Assembly: GCA_014874475.1 (NCBI GenBank)
Contig: JADBJJ010000027.1
Coordinates: 95,793-159,792, forward strand
Reading direction: 5' to 3'
Source of the DNA: Chloroflexota bacterium
GTDB lineage: Bacteria > Chloroflexota > Anaerolineae > B4-G1 > DUEL01
Length of the DNA stretch: 64,000 nt
Positions within the stretch are counted from its first letter, which is position 1; every line of letters starts with the position of its first letter. A program made the translations under genes and the position numbers. A model generated the notes under the pieces. It was not told the DNA's origin, did no database searches, and saw only the letters and a program-made list of their open reading frames with translations. Below are positions 3,378-48,864 of this stretch, piece by piece.

Positions 3378-3700
3378 CTACGACCCGACCGTGATCAAAT
3401 CCTTGATCCCTGCAAACGTCGTCGGGCCGATGCTGGGCACGTCCGGAATCTCATCAATGGCTCCGAATGGCCCGTTGGCCTCGCGGTACGCTACGATGCG
3501 CTGTGCCGTTATCGGCCCGATGCGCGGGGGTGTCTCCAACTCCGCTGCGGTGATAGTATTGATGTTGACCTTGACTCCTGTTGTCTCCCTAAGTATTAAC
3601 TCCGCCGCTTGCCCCCAGTGATGGCGGACTGGCTTTCTCCCGACGCGGCCTGTAGACCTGCTGCGGATCCCGCACCTCCCGTGCTTTCACTTTCGTGCTT
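3378..3700 (-). pseudogene. comEA: ComEA-family helix-hairpin-helix DNA-binding protein, C-terminal fragment only, 5'-truncated by IS insertion.
   Basis: The minus-strand translation reads …GVKVNINTITAAELETPPRIGPITAQRIVAYREANGPFGAIDEIPDVPSIGPTTFAGIKDLITVGS*, a classic ComEA HhH domain. The reading frame runs straight into the IS end at 3701, and there is no Met in the remaining frame. Confidence 0.6.
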
Positions 3701-4582
3701 GTGATTGTTCCAAAAATTGGCATAGAGTTTGAATTTCAAATATTTCCCCATTTACTGCTCTTTCTTATGCGGCCATCAGTTCCACCAGGGAAATCTTCCC
3801 TCTCCTCAACCCTCCGAATAGGCTGCTTACATTACAACACCGACTCCGCGCTTCTACCCGGCACACCGGGTGCTTCAACCCCAATGCATCGGCCACCTTC
3901 TTGAACCCATCCGCATCATCGGTGACCATCACCTCCGCCTGAACCATCTCGGCGACCTCCCGCAACCACTCCTCCAGCGTCTCTGCCGTCTCGTCTTTCA
4001 GAACCCGGATGCTGATGATGACCCTCTTCTGATCATCCACCGCCACCCCGACCGAATCCATTCCCCCCGGCACTTCACGCTGGTGACATCCCCACCGATG
4101 ACGTTCACCCGCCCTCCTTTCTCCAACCACTGGCGACGCAAGCGCTGGGCTCTCTTCCCTGCCGCCTGTATATTCCGATAAACGGTGGTCTTGCCTAATC
4201 CGATGGGCTTCTTCAGGGTACTCCCCAGCAATGCCAGAAAGAGGGCTACGGCGCCGTAACTGAGTTCCAACAAGTACAGAATCCCACTCACCGCTCGTAG
4301 GGCATCCGAATGATGCGCCCGGGAGACACCCGCTGGGTAGGCCCGAAACGTCCGCCGACAACGGAGACAGCGATAGCGCATCGCCTCCACTTCCTCATAC
4401 TCCAGGTCTCGGAGGGGTTTGGGGCACACTTGGAGCGCCTTGAAAAAGCCCCCACCGCAAAAAGGACAACGGGTCGGGGGAGCGGGGCTGGTGTTCACGA
4501 CCGGAATCCGTAGATTGTAAGTCCTCAATGTTCTCACCTCCCACAGAATCTCCCCCTATTTTACCATACCCGGAACAATCAC
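3701..4582 (-). mobile_element. IS1-family insertion sequence (~882 bp) with imperfect terminal inverted repeats (GTGATTGTTCC at both ends).
   Basis: The ends are 3701 gtgattgttccaa and 4572-4582 ggaacaatcac (reverse complement). The internal InsA-like (Zn-finger plus HTH) and InsB-like (DDE) coding regions are present. A related end fragment occurs at 45385-45559. Confidence 0.65.
3765..4537 (-). pseudogene. IS1-family transposase (InsAB'-like) split into two overlapping frames by a frameshift at a G6 run.
   Basis: ORF 3998-4537 carries CPFC…CLRC zinc-finger and HTH motifs plus '…NVIGG'. ORF 3765-4361 continues 'MDSVGVAVDDQ…VTDDADGF', which parallels IS1 InsB 'EMDEQWGYVG…MTDGWPLY'. The frame change maps to the C6/G6 homopolymer at 4063-4068. 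Confidence 0.6.
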
Positions 4583-4666
4583 AAAGAACGCGAGGGCTTG
4601 CCCTGCAGGGGTTTTTATGCTAAAATTAAATCGGTTCGTCCCCCTGCGCTGGCCCCGGAGGAGAGA

Positions 4667-23963: not shown

Positions 23964-24010
23964 GCGGCCTTCTCAGCCGCTGGCTGTGGGTTCAAGTCCC
24001 ACCGGGGATG
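23964..24010 (+). other. tRNA-like 3' fragment: anticodon arm (loop CTTCTCA), variable loop, T-arm GTGGG-TTCAAGT-CCCAC and a 3' acceptor strand. There is no matching D-arm or 5' acceptor.
   Basis: The stem/loop geometry from tRNA position 27 onward is perfect, but the upstream sequence cannot form a D-arm or acceptor stem. Confidence 0.3.
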
Positions 24011-24084
24011 CTGCTGGAGGTCAGGAAAAGGCTGACGAGCCGGAGGATGTTTGGAGGTCGGCGGCGGAGCCGCCGACCCCCAAA

Positions 24085-24723
24085 TTATTTACCCTCAGTG
24101 ATGCGCTCAATAATTATCTCAGCGGCGATCCGGGCCCCGATACCGGGCAGGAGGCTGCACTTTTCAAAACCTTTCGCCGCTGCGAAAGCCGCCATATTCT
24201 CCGGACTGGCTGCCGGGTCCATATAACGACCGAATATCACAGCCTCCTGCAACTCGGGACAGCGGACAAACCCGACTGTCTCCTGGAAGCGGGGCATGAA
24301 TGTTCGCGCAGCCTGAATGGTCGCCCTGGTCGCGTCGTAATTCAGCACGTCCCTGCTGCCGAAGTAAAGGCCCAGAGCAATCAGCCCCCCGGTCACTGCC
24401 CCGCACATCCAGCCGGTCCCGCCGAAGCCGGGGAACGGAGAGAGCCCCTGGATGATTTCCAGATTGCCCAGACCGAATTCCTCCATAAGAGCCAGAGCGG
24501 TCCCTTTCGCACAGTTGCGGGCGAGAAAGTTGTACTCTTCGGCCCGTCGCTGGACCCGGTCCAGGATTTGCTCCCTGTTCGCCAACACCTCATCCGGGTT
24601 GAGCGCCTTCTGGGGAATTCCCGTTTCGGCCATTCTCCGGTATCGGGCGACTATCGCCTCTATATCCCACTCCCTCTCAGCCAGTTCCTGCACCCTGGCC
24701 TTTAGGGATTCGTAGTCTACCAT
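24085..24723 (-). CDS. C_GCAxxG_C_C-family putative redox protein.
   Basis: 'NCAKGTALAL' and 'GWMCGAVTGGLIALG' are the motifs. GGGAGGTGG lies before ATG 24723. Confidence 0.45.
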   Translation of the reverse strand: MVDYESLKARVQELAEREWDIEAIVARYRRMAETGIPQKALNPDEVLANREQILDRVQRRAEEYNFLARNCAKGTALALMEEFGLGNLEIIQGLSPFPGFGGTGWMCGAVTGGLIALGLYFGSRDVLNYDATRATIQAARTFMPRFQETVGFVRCPELQEAVIFGRYMDPAASPENMAAFAAAKGFEKCSLLPGIGARIAAEIIIERITEGK

Positions 24724-40038: not shown

Positions 40039-41760
40039 TTAAAAATCAAAAACACTATCCAGTTCCTCATCTCGGATGACGAAGACTTTGTTATGGGGCG
40101 GCAGGGGCTCTTCGTAGAAGAACCGGGGCAGTCGGTCGTCCTCTTTCGTGAAGCCCGCCTTCCGGTTGAACTCCCGCTCCGCGTTCAGCACCCGTCGGCC
40201 CAGGCCGAAGGGAAATTCATCGGGCTCCAGCGGCCGGCCCAGTCTGGCGCTGATGGCCTTGCTGACCACCTCAAACCCCTCCGGGCTCAGCAGAGAGACG
40301 CTCGCCATAAAGCACATCCCCAGCGTGTCGTAGGCGGCAATCGCGATCTGGAGGAACCGGGAAGTCTCCACCTGCCCCTCAGGGCTCAGCGGGTTCAGCG
40401 CACCTGTCAGGTATGCCCCAACTACGTTCCCCGCCGTGTGGTCTGCTCCCATCGGCGAGGTGGCGTAGGTTACGCCGTTCCCCAGCATTGCCCGGGGGTC
40501 GTAGGCGGCAATTGTCTGCCCCTTGACCGCAGGGACGCGGGGGTTATTGAAGTGCTTGCCCACCGCGACTCCGCCGCCCCCCAGAATCCGACCCAACTCC
40601 GTACCCCTGCCGATTTCCTCCACCATCTCCAGGACGGCTTCGGCGTCCCCGAACTGCCGGTACCCAGCATCCAGCGCCACTGCGATGGCTGCCCCGGTGC
40701 TCATCGTGTCTATCCCGATGTTGTCGCACATATAGTCCAGCCGGGCAATCACATCCAGGTCGGTGATGCCGGTCATCCCACCCATCGCCCAGATAGTCTC
40801 ATACTCCAGGGAACTGGTAACATACTTGCTGTCCTTATCCACATAGACGTTGGAGCAGTGGATGATGCACTGGGCACATCCCTGGTGGGTGGGATTTCCT
40901 CCCCGCTGCTGGATGATTTCGGCCATCCGCTCTCCACAGATGTTTTCCCAGCCGTCCAGTACCCCCTTCCGCGCGTTGTAACTGGGGAAGGCTCCCATTG
41001 TGTTGACCGGCGCCACCAGGGCTGCGGTGCCCAGTTTGGGCATCACTTCGGCATTCATCGGGTCCGATTTGACCATCTGGACAATGGCCTGGACGGCCTC
41101 TTTGAAAGCCTGGGGGTCCGCGATGGGGTCGGCGCTCTTGCCGTGCTGATCCACCACGATGGCTTTGAGGCCCTTGGCCCCCATCACTGCCCCCATGCCG
41201 CCCCGTCCCGCAGCCCGGCAGGGATGATTATCCACATCGGAGGATTGAACGGACGCAATGGGCATCCGGTACTCGCCCGCCGGCCCAATACAGAGTACCG
41301 AATTGTCCTTCCCGTAGATTTCCATGAGCCGCTCTACCAGCGGGTACGTCCGCATCCCCCAATATTCCTGGGCTGGGACCAGGCTGGCGTTCCCTTCACG
41401 GTCAATCCGAAGGATGTAGAGTTCTCCTTCCGGCGCCTGGCCCTCCACGATGATGGCCGTGATGCCCAGGCGGCCCAGAGAGGCTCCCATTGTCCCTCCG
41501 ACGTTGCTCTCTTTGATCCCGCCCGTCAGCGGGCTCTTGGCCCCGATGGAGGTGCGGCTGGTATTGGGGAGTGTCGTGCCGCTCAGGAGTCCGGGGGCGA
41601 CAATCAGTTTGTTCTCCGGCCCCAGAGGGTCACAGTGGGCGGGCACTTCGGCGTTGACGATGGTGGATGTCAGCCCCCGGCCCCCAAGCCCCGTGTACGC
41701 CAGAGGCACATCCTCCACACGGATGGCCCTGCGGGTCATATCTACGCGGATCAGTTTCAT
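40039..41760 (-). CDS. Aldehyde:ferredoxin oxidoreductase (tungsten-containing AOR family).
   Basis: The AOR N-terminal signature is 'MKLIRVDMTRR…GLGGRGL…'. The product is about 570 aa. AAGGAGG lies before the ATG. Confidence 0.75.
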   Translation of the reverse strand: MKLIRVDMTRRAIRVEDVPLAYTGLGGRGLTSTIVNAEVPAHCDPLGPENKLIVAPGLLSGTTLPNTSRTSIGAKSPLTGGIKESNVGGTMGASLGRLGITAIIVEGQAPEGELYILRIDREGNASLVPAQEYWGMRTYPLVERLMEIYGKDNSVLCIGPAGEYRMPIASVQSSDVDNHPCRAAGRGGMGAVMGAKGLKAIVVDQHGKSADPIADPQAFKEAVQAIVQMVKSDPMNAEVMPKLGTAALVAPVNTMGAFPSYNARKGVLDGWENICGERMAEIIQQRGGNPTHQGCAQCIIHCSNVYVDKDSKYVTSSLEYETIWAMGGMTGITDLDVIARLDYMCDNIGIDTMSTGAAIAVALDAGYRQFGDAEAVLEMVEEIGRGTELGRILGGGGVAVGKHFNNPRVPAVKGQTIAAYDPRAMLGNGVTYATSPMGADHTAGNVVGAYLTGALNPLSPEGQVETSRFLQIAIAAYDTLGMCFMASVSLLSPEGFEVVSKAISARLGRPLEPDEFPFGLGRRVLNAEREFNRKAGFTKEDDRLPRFFYEEPLPPHNKVFVIRDEELDSVFDF

Positions 41761-41771
41761 TGCAGACCTCC

Positions 41772-42872
41772 TTAGTGCTCCATGCGTAGGACTGGCTTAA
41801 TCACACGGCCCGCCTCCATATCATGAACAGCCCGCCCGATTTCCTCAAAGGGGTAGTATGTAATCAACCGGTCAAAGGGGAAACGACCCTGACGGTACAG
41901 TTCCACCAGTCTGGGGATGAAGAGGTCCGGGATGGCATCGCCCCCGAGGATGCCCCGGACCACCCGACCGTTCATCAACAGGTCCATATCCAGGGCCACC
42001 TCTGTGCCAGGCGGGACCACGCCGATCAGGCCACAGACTCCCAGACGAGGGAGAGAGTCCACTGCCTGCCGCAGGACTTTCGGATTCCCCACGCACTCCA
42101 GAGTGAATTGGGCTCCGCCACCGGTGATCTCCCGGATAGCATCCACGGGGTTCACTTCGGCCGCGTTGACGGTGTGCGTCGCGCCTAATTCTCGGGCCAC
42201 CGCCAGACGCTCCGGGTTGATGTCCACCGCGATGATAGTTGTACATCCGCAGACTATCGCCCCCAGAATAGCGCTCATTCCCACTGTGCCAATACCGAAC
42301 ACCGCGATGGAATCCCCCGGCCCGGCCTGAAGCGAATTGATGACCGCTCCCGCACCGGTCATCACGCCACAGCCCATAGGGGCCAATACGTCCAGAGGCA
42401 CATCGTCCGGCACTTTGACCACATTCCGCTCATTAGCCAGTGCAAAGGTGGCAAATGAGGACTGGCAGAAAAAGGAGCCGTGGACGGCCTGATGGTCTTT
42501 GTGGAGGGTTATGCTGCCATCCGGTCGGGCGCCGTGGAAATTGTGCAGGAAGAAGTTCAGGCAGTAGAGGACCTTACTCGCCTTGCATGCGGAGCATGTT
42601 CCGCAATAATCCCAGGTCATAATCACATGGTCGCCCGGTTTGACTTTGGTCACCCGCGCGCCGACCTTCTCCACAATGCCAGCCCCTTCGTGCCCGAAGA
42701 CGCTGGGCGGCTCAGGGATCGGCAGGTGACCAGCCCGAGCACCCAGGTCGGTGTGGCAGATACCCGAAGCGACGATGCGGACCAGCACCTCGTCGTCCCT
42801 GGGCTCATCCAGTTCCAGTTCCTCAATCTGGAAATCCCCCCCGGTCTCAAAAATGACGGCCGCTTTGACCTT
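41772..42872 (-). CDS. Zn-dependent alcohol dehydrogenase (MDR family).
   Basis: 'GICHTDL' and 'GHEGAGIVEKVG' are the motifs. GGGAGGG lies before ATG 42872. Confidence 0.7.
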   Translation of the reverse strand, partial: KVKAAVIFETGGDFQIEELELDEPRDDEVLVRIVASGICHTDLGARAGHLPIPEPPSVFGHEGAGIVEKVGARVTKVKPGDHVIMTWDYCGTCSACKASKVLYCLNFFLHNFHGARPDGSITLHKDHQAVHGSFFCQSSFATFALANERNVVKVPDDVPLDVLAPMGCGVMTGAGAVINSLQAGPGDSIAVFGIGTVGMSAILGAIVCGCTTIIAVDINPERLAVARELGATHTVNAAEVNPVDAIREITGGGAQFTLECVGNPKVLRQAVDSLPRLGVCGLIGVVPPGTEVALDMDLLMNGRVVRGILGGDAIPDLFIPRLVELYRQGRFPFDRLITYYPFEEIGRAVHDMEAGRVIKPVLRMEH

Positions 42873-43069
42873 CATAATATCCCTCCCGTTTTGAAGGACG
42901 GTTTTTGCGGCGGCTGCAGGCTGCCGCAAAAAACCTTCGGCCCTTACACTCCCGGGCTGGTGAGGCCACCAGCCCCTGCCCGGCGAATCAGGAGGCTTGT
43001 TGTCTGCCGGAATCGCCTGTCAACAAGCCTGACAGGCCCCCAGAAAGGGGGGCCTGTCAGGATGCAAGT

Positions 43070-44437: not shown

Positions 44438-45070
44438 TTATTGAACGCCGATCCATTTCTTGGCCAGAGACACGCCGGTCACGGCGTCCCTCCCGTAGGC
44501 GTCTGCGCCGGTGTAAGTCCGCACATGCTCGTCCACCGAGCCGCCGCCGATCATTACTTTCACCTTGTCCCGTAGCCCGGCCTCCTCCAGCGCCTGGATG
44601 GTCGCTTTCATGGAGTCATAGGCCAGGGTGAGGAACCCGCTCAGGCCGACGACCTGGGGCTGGAAATCCCGTACTGCCTCCACAAACTTCTGCGGGGGAA
44701 CGTCCACGCCCAGGTCCAGGACCTCAAAGCCGTTGGCATCCAGCATAAAGGTCACGATGTTCTTGCCGATGTCGTGGATGTCTCCCTGGACGGTGCCAAT
44801 GAGGACCCGCCCGAGCCGCTTGACCTCCGGGGATTCGGCCAGTTTGGGTTTGAGGATTTCGGCGATCTGGCCCATAATCTCACCAGCCATCATCAGTTCC
44901 GGGAGGAAATAGACACCCTTCTCGTACTGCTGGCCGATGATGTCCATTGCCTGCCGGGCCGCATCCAGGATCGCCATGGGCTTGACGCCCGTATCCAGCA
45001 TGTCTCGGACTAATTGGATGGCCTCTTCTTCTCTCATCTCGGCAATGGCATTGACCAGTTTTTCTGACAT
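44438..45070 (-). CDS. Cobalamin-binding corrinoid protein (MtaC/MtbC-like; B12-binding cap plus Rossmann domain).
   Basis: The DxHxxG motif is 'GDIHDIGKN', and the Rossmann part is 'GLSGFLT…IGGG'. AGGAGGA lies before ATG 45070. Confidence 0.75.
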   Translation of the reverse strand: MSEKLVNAIAEMREEEAIQLVRDMLDTGVKPMAILDAARQAMDIIGQQYEKGVYFLPELMMAGEIMGQIAEILKPKLAESPEVKRLGRVLIGTVQGDIHDIGKNIVTFMLDANGFEVLDLGVDVPPQKFVEAVRDFQPQVVGLSGFLTLAYDSMKATIQALEEAGLRDKVKVMIGGGSVDEHVRTYTGADAYGRDAVTGVSLAKKWIGVQ

Positions 45071-45350
45071 TTTATCCTCCTGCTGAAAGTAGAATGGGGA
45101 GATCAAACGAAGAGTTTTTTCACTTGAGGAATGACTTGAGGGATACGTTCAGAGTACGGGCACCTCCTGTTACAGTTTATACGACCGCCTTTGATTGTAA
45201 ATAGATGCCCCCTCAGGGAACCAGGGGGAATGGCCAGAGGCTCTGTGGAGCCTGAAGGTACACGAAGCTCTGTTCTTCGTACCCACCTCGTTCCAGTTCG
45301 CTGGGGCGCAGGTGAAGGTCCGACCCGACGTGTTACGCGTGGTGGAGTTG

Positions 45351-45379
45351 CTCTGCTATAATTATACACTGGTATAGGG
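45351..45379 (-). promoter_or_regulatory. Sigma70-type promoter (TTGACA-N17-TATAAT on the minus strand) with an embedded TATAC-N4-GTATA palindrome. It drives the corrinoid/methyltransferase operon through a ~270-nt 5' UTR.
   Basis: The reverse complement reads cTTGACAatttccctataccagtgTATAATtat. The same motif recurs at 61810-61838. Confidence 0.5.
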
Positions 45380-45384
45380 AAATT

Positions 45385-45559
45385 GTCAAGGCCGTTCGGG
45401 GGTATAAGCGGACGGCGTCGGTGTTGAATGTGAGCAGCCTGTTAGGAGAATTGAGGAGAGGGAAGATTTCCCTGGCGGAACTGATGGCCGCATAAGAAAA
45501 AGGCGGTAAATGGGGGGATATTTGAAATTCAAACTCTATGCTAATTTTGGAACAATCAC
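45385..45559 (+). mobile_element. Solo right-end fragment (~175 bp) of an IS1-family element related to 3701-4582, in inverted orientation.
   Basis: It is about 90% identical to the reverse complement of 3701-3870, including the transposase C-terminus (…NVSSLLGELRRGKISLAELMAA*) and the terminal GGAACAATCAC. Confidence 0.6.
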
Positions 45560-45856
45560 CGTGTCCCCCGTTCCCTTATAGACTGCAACCTGCGGGTATG
45601 GGCAGATGGGACGAGTCCGAAGCACATTGATGCGAAGTGTATCAAACCTGGCCGCGATGATCTGGTCGGGCGCTACCCCGTCCTCCACCCATGCCTGGAT
45701 GGCCGCGAGCCAGTCAATGGTATCCGGACCATCCCCGCCTCCGCAGTGTGTTACCCCGGGCAGCAGAAAGAGGCGGAAGAACTTCTGTGTCTTCTCCAGA
45801 CCGTCCATTGCTTTGACGACACTGTTAGGTAGTTGATGTTGTTTCCCTACACTCAC
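45536..45856 (-). pseudogene. C-terminal ~100-aa remnant of a tannase/feruloyl-esterase-family gene. Its last 7 codons and stop are supplied by the IS end.
   Basis: 'FRLFLLPGVTHCGGGDGPD…AIQAWVEDGVAPDQIIA' matches the family C-terminus. There is no N-terminal catalytic part, because the upstream sequence is another gene. Confidence 0.45.
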
Positions 45857-46914
45857 GATGAGGGCAAATCCACCGTGGCCCCTAGTTCAGCAGATAGTTC
45901 CTTTAACTCCTTTAATGCTTTGACCGGTACAGGAACGCCGGATTGCCGGTACTCGCGCTCCTTGAGCCATTCAATCTCCCCAGGTAGGTAGATGCGATCC
46001 ACGCCCGGAGCGCGCGGAGAATGGCGAATGACGTCAATCAGCGATGCCATGTCGTTCGTGTACTCCGTCCAGTCACTGAACGCCGCGATGTCCACCGCCT
46101 GCATTACGAAACCAACCGACGCGCGACGACTCAGGTCATGGAGCGAGGCCAGATATATGCTGTAATCCGATCCGGTCAACACCCCGGCCAGGGCATCTAC
46201 CACCAGTGCCAAGCCGTACCCCTTCGGCCCACCGATAGGCAGTAGAGTCCCTTCCAGGGCGGCTTCCGGGTCTTCGGTGGGGCGCCCTTCGGCATCCAGG
46301 GCCCATCCCAGGGGAATCCGTTCGCCCTGGCTGGCAGCAGAGCGAATCTTCCCCCGCGCCACGATGGACGCCGCCATGTCCAGGACAATATCCACCTCCT
46401 GACCCGTGGGGATAGCCACGCTGATCGGATTTGTACCGAGCACGGCGGTGGCACCGCCCCAGGCGGCCATACTGGGCGCCGCGTTGGTGGCCGCGATCCC
46501 GATCATCTGGTGGGGTAAGGCCATCATGGTGTAGTACGCGGCGATCCCAAAGTGATTCGCGTTCCGTACGGCGACGACTCCCACCCCCCACTGGCGCGCC
46601 CGCTCAATGGCATGATTCATCGCGTACGCACCGGCTACCTGCCCGAATCCTCCCTGCGCGTCCAGCAGAACGGTGGCGCCCCGCTCCCGAACGACCCGGA
46701 GTCGGGTATCGGCCGTCATCAGTCCAGCCTGTACCCGGTGGACATAGGCCGGCAGCCGGAGCACTCCGTGGGAGCCCACACCGCGCAGGTCGGCCTTGAC
46801 GGTAGCCTCCGCGATAATCCTGGCCTGGTCCTCTGGCACACCGACTTTCTGCAATATCCGCTCGCACGCTTCTAAAAGAACATCCGCAGCGACGAGAATT
46901 ATGTTCCCTGCCAT
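45853..46914 (-). CDS. Ldh_2 family oxidoreductase (malate/L-lactate/ureidoglycolate dehydrogenase type).
   Basis: 'LRGVGSHGVLRLPAYV' is the motif. GAGAGGA lies before ATG 46914. Confidence 0.6.
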   Translation of the reverse strand: MAGNIILVAADVLLEACERILQKVGVPEDQARIIAEATVKADLRGVGSHGVLRLPAYVHRVQAGLMTADTRLRVVRERGATVLLDAQGGFGQVAGAYAMNHAIERARQWGVGVVAVRNANHFGIAAYYTMMALPHQMIGIAATNAAPSMAAWGGATAVLGTNPISVAIPTGQEVDIVLDMAASIVARGKIRSAASQGERIPLGWALDAEGRPTEDPEAALEGTLLPIGGPKGYGLALVVDALAGVLTGSDYSIYLASLHDLSRRASVGFVMQAVDIAAFSDWTEYTNDMASLIDVIRHSPRAPGVDRIYLPGEIEWLKEREYRQSGVPVPVKALKELKELSAELGATVDLPSS

Positions 46915-46927
46915 TTTAACCGTCCTC

Positions 46928-48640
46928 TCAGAGGGCCGAGAATATCTCGTCCAGTTCAGCGTCCGGCACATCAAAGACGGTGTTGTGGGGTGGGAGCGGC
47001 TCTCGCCTCATATACTCCGGTATCCGGGCATCCGCCGATGTGAGGCCAGCCTGCCGGTTGAATTCCAGTTCCATTTTCAGCACCGTCTTCTTGTACTCCT
47101 GGAGGTCTGCCACTGTCCACCCCCAGCCGAAGCGGCCGTTAATCAGGTCCACCATCAACTGAGGGTCGCTGAACACCGGCGGCCTGGCGAACAGGCACAA
47201 TCCCGTACTATCCAGGGAGATGACGTCCAACTGGAGCCGGAGCGATGCTTCACATTGTCCTGTGGCGGCCAGCGGATCTACCTTGTCCCTGACGCCGAAA
47301 GCGTTCCCTGCGGTATGGTCCGCGCCCATCGGCGACGTGGCGTAGGTCACTCCGTTGCCCTTGAGCGCGCGGGGGTCGTAGGCTGGCATAGCCTGCCCTT
47401 TGGCCGCAGGCACCCGGGAGATCCCCAGCACACGGCCTGCGACAACGGCTCCCTGTCCCAGCACCCGTCCCAAAACGCTGCCTGCTGCAATCTCGTTCAG
47501 GAGCGCCTCAAAACTGGCTGCATCACCAAAGCGGGCCAGGCCTGCCTCCGCCGCCACCCCCAGAGCGGCTCCGGTCTCAATGGAATCCAGACCCAGGTCG
47601 TTGCAGATGCGATTCAGACGGGCAACCTCATCCAGCGTCCCGATGCCCAGATTGGAGCCGAGCATCCCGATGGTCTCATATTGCAGGGTGGCTACGATGG
47701 GATTGCCGTCCGGGTCCACGAACTGGTTGCAGCAGGCGATAACACAGTTGGCCATGCACCTTGTGCCGACCTTGCCACCTCGCGCCAGCGCGGTTTCCCG
47801 TAGCCGCGGACCGGTCAGATTCTCTATCTTCTCAAACTGGCCTGCGCTGAAGTTGCGCGTGGGGAAAGCTCCCATCTCGTTGACGGCCTCAACGATGGCC
47901 GAGGTCCCATATAGGTGCATAGAGCCCTGGCGGCCCGTCCGGGGGTTCTCGGCCAGTTCGGTGGCGAAGCGGCGCGCTGCGGCGCGGAACAACTCGGGGT
48001 CAGCCAGAGGGGGCATCTCACCTCCCGAGGCGTCCAGCACAACGGCCTTCAGTCTCTTGCTGCCCATCAGCGCGCCCAGTCCGCCGCGCGCGGCCATCCG
48101 GCTGACTTGCTCTTCGTACCCGGTGCAGGCGATGGCAGCAGCGGTCATCCCCATCTCACCGGCCGGGCCGATGGAGATGACTGTGCAATGCTCCCCCCAC
48201 CGCTCCTGCGCCTTCGCAACCGTCGCGTACGTGCCCAGCCCGCGCCACTCATCGGCGGGGAGCAACTCCGCTCCCTGCCGGGATATATACAGCAGGTACA
48301 ACTTCCCATCTCTGGGCTGACCCTCCACCACCACGGCCTTGATGCCGAGGCGGATCAGGTGGGAGCCGGCGTCCCCACCGCAGTTGGCCTCTTTGACCCC
48401 GCCGGTCAGAGGGCTCTTGCCGCCGACGGAGAGTCTCGCCGAACTGGATAGATTCGTGCCGCCCAGGAGGCCGGGCGCCAGAATGAGTTTGTTATATGGG
48501 CCGAGAGGTTCGCACTGAGGTGGGACTTCTGTCAGCAATACCTTTGCGATCAGGGCGCGCCCCCCGAAGCGTTCGTACTCCGGGGGGACGGGCTCCCAGT
48601 TCAGTTCCAAACGATCCATGTTGACCCTCAAAATCTTCAT
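46928..48640 (-). CDS. Aldehyde:ferredoxin oxidoreductase (AOR family), second copy.
   Basis: 'MKILRVNMDRLELNWEPVP…' begins the product; it is colinear with the first AOR. Confidence 0.75.
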   Translation of the reverse strand: MKILRVNMDRLELNWEPVPPEYERFGGRALIAKVLLTEVPPQCEPLGPYNKLILAPGLLGGTNLSSSARLSVGGKSPLTGGVKEANCGGDAGSHLIRLGIKAVVVEGQPRDGKLYLLYISRQGAELLPADEWRGLGTYATVAKAQERWGEHCTVISIGPAGEMGMTAAAIACTGYEEQVSRMAARGGLGALMGSKRLKAVVLDASGGEMPPLADPELFRAAARRFATELAENPRTGRQGSMHLYGTSAIVEAVNEMGAFPTRNFSAGQFEKIENLTGPRLRETALARGGKVGTRCMANCVIACCNQFVDPDGNPIVATLQYETIGMLGSNLGIGTLDEVARLNRICNDLGLDSIETGAALGVAAEAGLARFGDAASFEALLNEIAAGSVLGRVLGQGAVVAGRVLGISRVPAAKGQAMPAYDPRALKGNGVTYATSPMGADHTAGNAFGVRDKVDPLAATGQCEASLRLQLDVISLDSTGLCLFARPPVFSDPQLMVDLINGRFGWGWTVADLQEYKKTVLKMELEFNRQAGLTSADARIPEYMRREPLPPHNTVFDVPDAELDEIFSAL

Positions 48641-48864
48641 GATGCCTCCGGTTGTGCAAAGTATCTGTTTGTTCTCGTGGTCGGAATGGTTTAAATTGGC
48701 TCGCTTCAGGCATCGCTTTCATTGCTCACAGCGGGAGACCTCCCGGGCAACGACTCCAGGCCTGACGGAGGTGAGGGTAGCCGTCTCGCAAAGGGTTACT
48801 GCACAACGTCCGCCACTCTCCCGTCTGCCAGAACGCGAGGGTCATCGGGCTGCAGAGCGCATAC

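Follow-up and report, generated by a model that had tools for sequence, protein, structure and literature searches.

A probable genomic scar composed of a solo insertion-sequence end and a tannase gene remnant between two operons in an Anaerolineae lineage

Results

Organization of the locus

In the window (the whole 64,000-nucleotide stretch of DNA that was analysed), an intact gene for a 353-aa dehydrogenase of the Ldh_2 family (Pfam Ldh_2, E = 7e-124) is located on the minus strand at 45853-46914, and its stop codon bounds a deletion. The exact 353-aa protein was present in the collection, the length of 353 aa was kept in 8 members of its cluster, and close relatives were found on many metagenome contigs. 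The gene is followed by a deletion junction (45844-45851), by the pseudogene remnant of a tannase/feruloyl esterase (45560-45843, minus strand), and by the right-end fragment of an insertion sequence (IS), a solo end, on the plus strand (45391-45559). An accidental 106-aa ORF (45536-45856, minus strand) covers the remnant and runs into the IS terminus. The IS fragment joins the neighboring operon 1 bp upstream of the -35 box of its promoter, which a promoter scan identified as sigma-70-type, TTGACA-17-TATAAT, with 12/12 positions matched (45361-45389, minus strand).

The operon served by this promoter consists of genes for a B12-binding protein, a URO-D-like protein, ADH, AFOR and an ABC transporter. 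Its first gene, at 44438-45106 on the minus strand, encodes the B12-binding corrinoid protein (Pfam B12-binding and B12-binding_2); the true start of this gene is probably located downstream of 45106, as relatives calling 209-210 aa suggest. A leader of 254 nt (45107-45360, minus strand) separates the promoter from the corrinoid gene, and blocks such as ACAGGAGGTGCCCGTACTCTGAA were kept in it even in the ~83%-identical contig L035. A structure with some compensatory pairs was obtained for the leader with RNAalifold from five sequences only. No Rfam match, including the cobalamin riboswitch, was found in the whole window at the gathering threshold or in 45050-45900 at E ≤ 1; the region is therefore not accounted for by a riboswitch or another known RNA.

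The IS fragment at 45391-45559

It had been claimed from the sequence alone that the segment 45385-45559 is about 90% identical to the inverted right end of an IS at 3701-3870, including the C-terminus of the transposase and the terminal GTGATTGTTCC. The homology was confirmed by alignment, repeat search and BLAST. Positions 45400-45559 matched the reverse complement of 3701-3859 in 144 of 162 columns (89%, with 5 gap columns), which also bore out the opposite orientation of the two copies. The repeat search of the window returned the same pair as two pieces with 91% and 88% identity, and contig L032, which carries the same locus, matched 3701-3844 in BLAST with E = 2e-49, far past chance. The limits of the segment did not stand. 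When 3701-3870 was compared with 45385-45559, the identity over the full span was only 85%, and the final ~10-15 bp were not IS sequence. Since the bases up to 45390 are homologous to promoter-region DNA common to the relatives, the IS-derived piece extends over approximately 45391-45559 (169 bp), and the left edge claimed initially lay ~6 bp too far.

The authentic outer terminus of the fragment, GGAACAATCAC, ends at 45559, and the inner break is located at 45391 (±5 bp). The fragment carries the last ~33 codons of the transposase on the plus strand, with the stop codon at 45494-45496, and the translation, ...AVRGYKRTASVLNVSSLLGELRRGKISLAELMAA*, matches the C-terminus of homologues of 394 aa. 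Both ends of the element at 3701-4582 carry the terminus GTGATTGTTCC, as do positions 45549-45559. A pattern search of the window with up to 3 mismatches revealed no second inverted terminus near the solo end, right-end termini being present only at 3701 and 45559. A MITE, or an autonomous small element, was considered for the 169-bp segment and was rejected because the segment has one terminus only; its inner end runs into promoter DNA.

The 21-mer of the IS end, ATAGAGTTTGAATTTCAAATA, gave only three chance matches, in unrelated phyla, when it was searched against the genome contig collection. Among the metagenome contigs, it was found in L032 and L030, in addition to four chance matches. 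L030 contains a third right end of the IS at another site, and the same metagenome also holds a 99.4%-identical copy of the locus (L032).

The second IS copy and the family of the IS

The other copy, at 3701-4582 on the minus strand, is 882 bp long and possesses both termini, GTGATTGTTCC (3701-3711) and GGAACAATCAC (4572-4582). Two overlapping minus-strand ORFs, 3998-4537 and 3765-4361, constitute its frameshifted transposase gene. In comparison with the homologue P0019 (394 aa), this copy aligned over residues 1-227 and then jumped to the last ~35 residues, so that approximately residues 228-360 of ~394 aa (~130 codons) are missing, including the region of the invariant TNNxxE glutamate. An intact relative was found at L025 2137-3456; it is 1,320 bp long and has a single ORF of 394 aa between the termini GTGATTGTTCC and GTGACTGTTCC. 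The 3701 copy had been described as a full IS, but it is internally deleted and frameshifted, with 882 bp against the 1,320 bp and the ~394-aa transposase of the intact relative. Because of these lesions, it is a defective, non-autonomous derivative of the IS. Approximately 110 bp from the right end of this copy, a C-terminal fragment of a ComEA-like helix-hairpin-helix protein (...NINTITAAELETPPRIGPITAQRIVAYREANGPFG...) is encoded at 3378-3590 on the minus strand; it is preceded by stop codons and is apparently another truncated gene.

The element has the general features of an insertion sequence, i.e., inverted termini around a transposase gene and more than one copy (3701, L025, 45559 and L030). 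Homologues with 388-399 aa were found for the reconstructed transposase, the best of them being only 56-58% identical, and D150, D207/208 and E346 (the glutamate of TNNxxE) were invariant in their alignment. Neither a target-site duplication (TSD) nor an 8-bp direct repeat was observed at 3701-4582 or in L025, among few intact insertions and with copies that may be rearranged; the solo end at 45559 offers one flank only for such a comparison.

The NCBIfam IS66 model (NF033517) was matched by 23 of the 25 homologues with at most ~42 bits, far below its curated cut-off of 180, and the IS6, IS256, ISL3 and ISH6 models matched the homologues nearly as often. IS66 gave the longest-spanning match for both homologues with coordinates listed (P0019, 17-349; P0060, 18-369), and the cut-off of Pfam DDE_Tnp_IS66 (23.1) was exceeded by P0060 alone (29.4 bits). 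L025 has a single ORF, with no division into tnpA and tnpB, and terminal inverted repeats (TIRs) of the kind that start with GTA/GTG, as is characteristic of IS66/ISBst12 elements. ISDge4, a single-ORF element of the ISBst12 group of the IS66 family, has the TIR GTGACTACTCAGCA and an 8-bp direct repeat (PMC12898284). The present IS resembles the ISBst12 group in its single ORF, its length of ~1.3 kb and the N-terminal Cys-rich region of its transposase, which is followed by a DDE domain with TNNxxER, and its termini begin with GTGAYT, like those of ISDge4 (PMC12898284). In contrast to ISDge4, its transposase has ~390 aa rather than 449 aa, and no 8-bp direct repeat was seen at the copies examined. 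The element is provisionally designated as IS66/ISBst12-like, with the family not settled. It is conceivable, with low probability, that it belongs to an uncurated IS66-like group, the features of which would be a transposase of ~390 aa, termini with GTGATTGTTCC, the lack of a visible TSD and homologues in metagenomes by the hundreds.

The tannase remnant and the 106-aa ORF

The remnant of 284 bp corresponds to codons ~454-548 of a gene of 559 codons. The ORF that covers it matched the Pfam Tannase profile PF07519 with E = 5.8e-29, and its residues 14-99 were aligned with positions 391-481 of 490, in agreement with the claim of the sequence-only reading that only the C-terminus of a tannase/feruloyl esterase is represented. 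Compared with the syntenic tannase of relatives (559 aa), the ORF was 85% identical at the amino acid level (BLASTP) to residues 460-548, and the remnant was 85.6% identical (BLASTN) to L001 8639-8923.

Tannases and feruloyl esterases are alpha/beta hydrolases with a CS-D-HC motif, which comprises a Cys-Ser nucleophile, an Asp and a His-Cys (PMC7936011). The remnant keeps the His-Cys (...GVTHCGGG...) and is devoid of the GCSGG serine (~230-235) and the HGWND Asp (~443-447); the intact orthologue has both of these motifs, and both fall in the deleted part. Compared with the PF07519 family, the remnant holds ~17% of the protein, with the catalytic Ser and Asp gone. Both the domain of ~490 positions and the catalytic triad of the CS-D-HC motif are incomplete, in contrast to what is expected of a functional tannase. 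By descent, the remnant is a tannase, i.e., a pseudogene, as indicated by the Pfam match and by the synteny directly downstream of Ldh_2 in contigs L001-L008.

The GTG start of the ORF overlaps the Ldh_2 stop codon (GTGA). The ORF is composed of ~10 first codons off the tannase frame, to which a 1-bp indel near the 5' end of the remnant has led, of 89 tannase codons, and of 7 codons and the stop codon from the IS terminus. These last seven codons (VIVPKLA*) had been ascribed to the IS, and this was read directly. In the NCBI annotation, the ORF appears in a 90-aa version, and its 90%-identity cluster contained two start-codon versions of the same locus only. Stand-alone conservation of the ORF in relatives, which had been named as a finding that would speak against a remnant, was not found, the cluster being confined to this locus. 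Judging by this sequence make-up, the ORF is a by-product, a fragment of a pseudogene.

The ancestral tannase locus and its lesions

Eight contigs from different samples (L001-L008) show the gene order Creatininase-(Molybdopterin)-AFOR-Ldh_2-218-bp spacer-Tannase (559 aa), and the tannase gene is followed by a sugar ABC transporter and a GH65 gene on the other strand. The comparison with relatives that had been proposed for finding the intact esterase gene therefore located it at the same place (~85% nucleotide identity), 218 bp after Ldh_2. This is consistent with the claim that the ORF adjoins the Ldh_2 stop codon and that the 5' 80% of the esterase gene has been lost. By BLASTN, L001 4269-7063 corresponded to window positions 48649-45852 (85%) and L001 8639-8923 to 45843-45560 (86%). 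What is missing in comparison with the relatives is L001 7064-8638, which is 1,575 bp comprising the 218-bp spacer and tannase codons 1-453. BLASTN against L001 and direct reading showed ~8 unassignable bp (45844-45851) in place of these 1,575 bp. No clear repeat indicative of microhomology was seen at this deletion junction, and the ~8 bp fit neither side. The 735-aa molybdopterin oxidoreductase of L001-L008 was found to be absent at 48650-48863 and in L020-L024, with ~70 bp of similarity remaining.

At the other end of the remnant, L001 continues from ...GGGGACACG into AACGACGC...TAA, whereas the window continues from the same ...GGGGACACG into GTGATTGTTCC. The IS terminus is located precisely 36 bp before the tannase stop codon, and the lost 36-bp tail includes AACGACGCGGCAAACTTTGCCTGTACGGCTCCTTAA. 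A stretch of 284 bp of tannase DNA separates the 1,575-bp deletion from the IS end. Because of this separation, the loss of the 5' part of the tannase gene is considered to be a separate deletion that was not caused by this IS copy. The sequence-only reading, in which the loss of the 5' part and the IS end were brought together as one IS-mediated rearrangement, was corrected in this respect, since the deletion does not adjoin the IS and sister strains have different lesions.

In L020 and L022-L024 (92% identical), another lesion was found, a 579-bp deletion (L001 7175-7753) by which the gene lost its first 158 codons together with the promoter-proximal spacer. In L021, a hairpin, a tRNA-Arg(TCT) gene and other genes have taken the place of the tannase gene, starting 10 bp past the Ldh_2 stop codon. 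Inactivation of the tannase gene has thus occurred in at least three different ways in the clade, and because it was lost in three ways in sister populations, it appears to be dispensable there.

The promoter side of the breakpoint

Contig L010 was collinear with the operon of the window over 10.3 kb at 88.6% identity, and the homology of L010, L011 and L016 to the window ended at 45390. The promoter was kept in these three contigs; at a distance of 16 bp, it is opposed there by the divergently oriented promoter of an adh_short gene. The true product of the adh_short gene of the relatives has 280 aa. An adh_short orthologue with 91% identity (P0204) was found in run SRR16588181 and on a 462-kb NCBI contig. 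L037, the contig with adh_short from the source sample, was placed in the source genome only through the shared sequencing run and the 'NCBI+Logan' provenance, and not through direct linkage. The homology of L037 to L010 ended at L010 1686, and that of the window started at L010 1688; both halves of the old adh_short/B12 spacer survive in the source sample, cut between the two -35 boxes. The claim that the IS end marks a rearrangement breakpoint was upheld by these data: the synteny of the relatives is lost at 45390, and the adh_short side is on another contig.

In L037 (553-1021), the adh_short promoter is joined at the breakpoint nucleotide to 390 bp of unrelated, unannotated DNA and tRNA-Lys(CTT). 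No IS or tannase remnants were detected beside adh_short in L037 by tblastn or local alignment. The ancestral adjacency of adh_short and the B12 operon was deduced from four or five contigs, all belonging to a single sister clade; in the more distant L035 and L036, rpsO-pnp is located upstream of the B12 operon instead of adh_short. Two AFOR paralogues of 573 and 570 aa, the genes of which share patches of ~79% nucleotide identity, lie within 40039-42929 and 45853-48640, with ADH_zinc upstream of one of them and Ldh_2 downstream of the other; the rearrangement brought these modules within 5 kb of each other.

The arrangement of Ldh_2, tannase remnant and IS end was reproduced by two other assemblies, L009 and L032. 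L009, a Logan assembly of SRR16588181, was 100% identical to the window down to 45530, and L032 (VSSL01010289.1) was 99.4% identical down to 45417.

The block at 2927-24000

The region 2927-24000, which contains the second IS copy, had no synteny with L033 and L034, the contigs with relatives of the flanking 470-aa gene, and five of the genes tested formed singleton clusters at 90% identity. Its G+C content varies from 46% to 71%. The region encodes several AAA_16/ATPase_2/TPR STAND-like NTPases, a radical-SAM protein, a MacB/FtsX permease, a TrmB regulator and a serpin. It likely represents one or more acquired islands.

At 23964-24096, the 3' half of a tRNA-Arg(TCT)-like gene is followed by a GC-rich hairpin, and this segment was 79% identical to L021 6926-7069. 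In L021, the complete tRNA-Arg gene is located 160 bp past Ldh_2, in the place of the tannase gene. No tRNA was reported in the window by ARAGORN, and no integrase gene was found beside the tRNA fragment at 24 kb, its upstream neighbor being the serpin gene. The segment 23964-24096 borders the strain-specific 2.9-24 kb block and may be what is left of an att-like site.

Discussion

Taken together, the locus is probably a non-functional genomic scar that arose through three or more separate events in a thermophilic hot-spring lineage of Anaerolineae. In the first step, a ~1.3-kb single-ORF DDE element of the IS66/ISBst12-like type inserted into the tannase gene, the next gene after Ldh_2, at a point 36 bp short of the stop codon and with its right terminus toward the gene body. 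The insertion is demonstrated, because the terminus is precise and the sequence of the relatives continues at that very nucleotide. In the second step, the IS would have been broken 169 bp inside its right end and joined, without filler, 1 bp upstream of the -35 box of the promoter of the corrinoid-protein/URO-D/ADH/AFOR operon. The junctions of this rearrangement were established by the comparisons described above; illegitimate recombination is the mechanism that we infer, along with the order of the events. In another step, an independent deletion of 1,575 bp took out the Ldh_2-tannase spacer and codons 1-453, with its edge at most 8 bp from the Ldh_2 stop codon.

The residue is ~460 bp of junk between two operons, the outer limits of which are a stop codon and a -35 box. 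Limits that coincide with functional elements would be expected from purifying selection on the neighboring genes combined with a deletional bias.

The second step is presumed to have been a rearrangement of the inversion or translocation type, probably followed by further loss, and not one simple deletion, because the adh_short half survives elsewhere and is cut at the same nucleotide. A single simple deletion would require that the AFOR-Ldh_2-tannase::IS locus and the B12 operon had been neighbors and that everything between the interior of the IS and the B12 promoter was lost. The two loci share their reading direction (minus strand), and the window does not contain the sugar ABC transporter found past the tannase gene in relatives, nor was an orthologue of this transporter seen on a large NCBI contig. 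However, if the arrangement of L010 is ancestral, such a deletion would have removed adh_short and its neighbors, and these occur in the same sample with the cut at exactly this nucleotide, the pattern that a reciprocal exchange leaves. One simple deletion is therefore unlikely. The reciprocal products of an exchange, namely, the left part of the IS, the 36-bp tail of the tannase gene and the sugar ABC transporter following it, were not recovered. No permease orthologue was found on a large NCBI contig of the source, and the one candidate looked up, L038, came from another sample and ends 128 bp past its permease gene. Deletion may therefore be part of the history of the exchange-type rearrangement preferred here.

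It is also conceivable that the breakpoints are not simply the points at which selection halted random deletions but recombination hot spots tied to a mobile segment associated with tRNA-Arg; the reshuffling would then be due to an integrative element rather than to the IS. Breaks at most 10 bp from the Ldh_2 stop codon were found in the window and in L021 and, to a lesser degree, in the clade with the 579-bp deletion. The hairpin is common to the tRNA-Arg of L021 and the segment 23964-24096, which lies at the edge of the strain-specific 2.9-24 kb block, and the second IS copy is located within this block. This explanation is considered improbable.

The sequence-only reading proposed past inversion or deletion events through the two IS copies. 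Of this proposal, the breakpoint was retained, and mutual recombination with inversion of 41 kb was not, as no evidence linking the two copies was obtained. In the form tested, the solo end and the 3701-4582 copy would have been partners in homologous recombination between IS copies, by which ~41.7 kb with the NTPase cluster and the catabolic operons were inverted. The two copies are indeed in inverted orientation, the 3701-4582 copy is not bordered by a target-site duplication, and synteny is broken at both of its flanks, where the homology of L033 and L034 ends at 2926 and the genes at 4.6-23.9 kb form singleton clusters. However, alignments of the flanks of the 3.7-kb copy with the missing 36-bp tannase tail and the downstream sequence gave scores of 16-20, compared with a mean of 16.6 and a maximum of 27 for shuffled sequences. 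No orthologue of the ABC permease, the SBP, adh_short or the 196-aa protein was found in the window by tblastn, and the adh_short side is on a different contig. In addition, the copies have diverged by 11% and differ in their lesions (an internal deletion in one and a one-sided truncation in the other), and L010 and L035 are collinear with 45390-29679 without any visible breakpoint inside. The 41.7-kb inversion is thus quite unlikely. A likeness of the left IS flank (4583-4620) to the missing tannase tail, noticed by eye, was also discarded, its alignment scores being no better than those of shuffled sequences.

The junction between the IS stump and the promoter (45390/45391) is spanned by the assembly of the window only, since L009 and L032 end inside the IS fragment, at 45530 and 45417, respectively. 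With no second witness, the junction could be an assembly artefact, i.e., a chimeric join induced by a repeat, where in truth a complete IS or a contig end is located. However, L032 enters the fragment for 143 bp with variants specific to the solo end and at 99.4% identity, and the interior of the IS and the promoter region share no sequence able to mislead an assembler. L037 shows that the adjacency of adh_short and the B12 operon was truly broken at this nucleotide in the sample, and the cut of the adh_short half at the same nucleotide provides independent support for a real breakpoint. An artefact is therefore very unlikely. That the 106-aa ORF encodes a functional small protein, a domesticated C-terminal tannase domain translationally coupled to Ldh_2, is hardly credible: its GTGA overlap has the typical geometry of coupling and the frame is open across 106 codons, but its cluster is confined to this locus, relatives carry the 559-aa gene or different deletions, the catalytic Ser (GCSGG, ~233) and Asp (~447) are gone, ~10 leading codons are out of frame after the indel, and 7 trailing codons come from IS DNA.

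Solo IS ends and IS scars at rearrangement junctions beside pseudogenes are known in the IS-rich genomes of Shigella, Yersinia pestis and Bordetella. The scar described here resembles them in the precise terminus in an interrupted gene, the inner truncation, the loss of synteny at that point and the further decay. It differs in that the host is an uncultured thermophilic member of Anaerolineae and in that the reciprocal junction was not recovered, and nothing essential differs. The locus is an instance of ordinary IS-associated genome decay, and no new mechanism is implied. For annotation, this means that the "tannase" ORF of 90-106 aa should be recorded as a pseudogene fragment and 3701-4582 as a defective IS, and that 45390/45391 should be treated as a synteny breakpoint in comparisons with relatives. 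The locus also provides a small example of how junk between two operons is trimmed until it is bounded directly by a stop codon at one end and by a -35 box at the opposite end.
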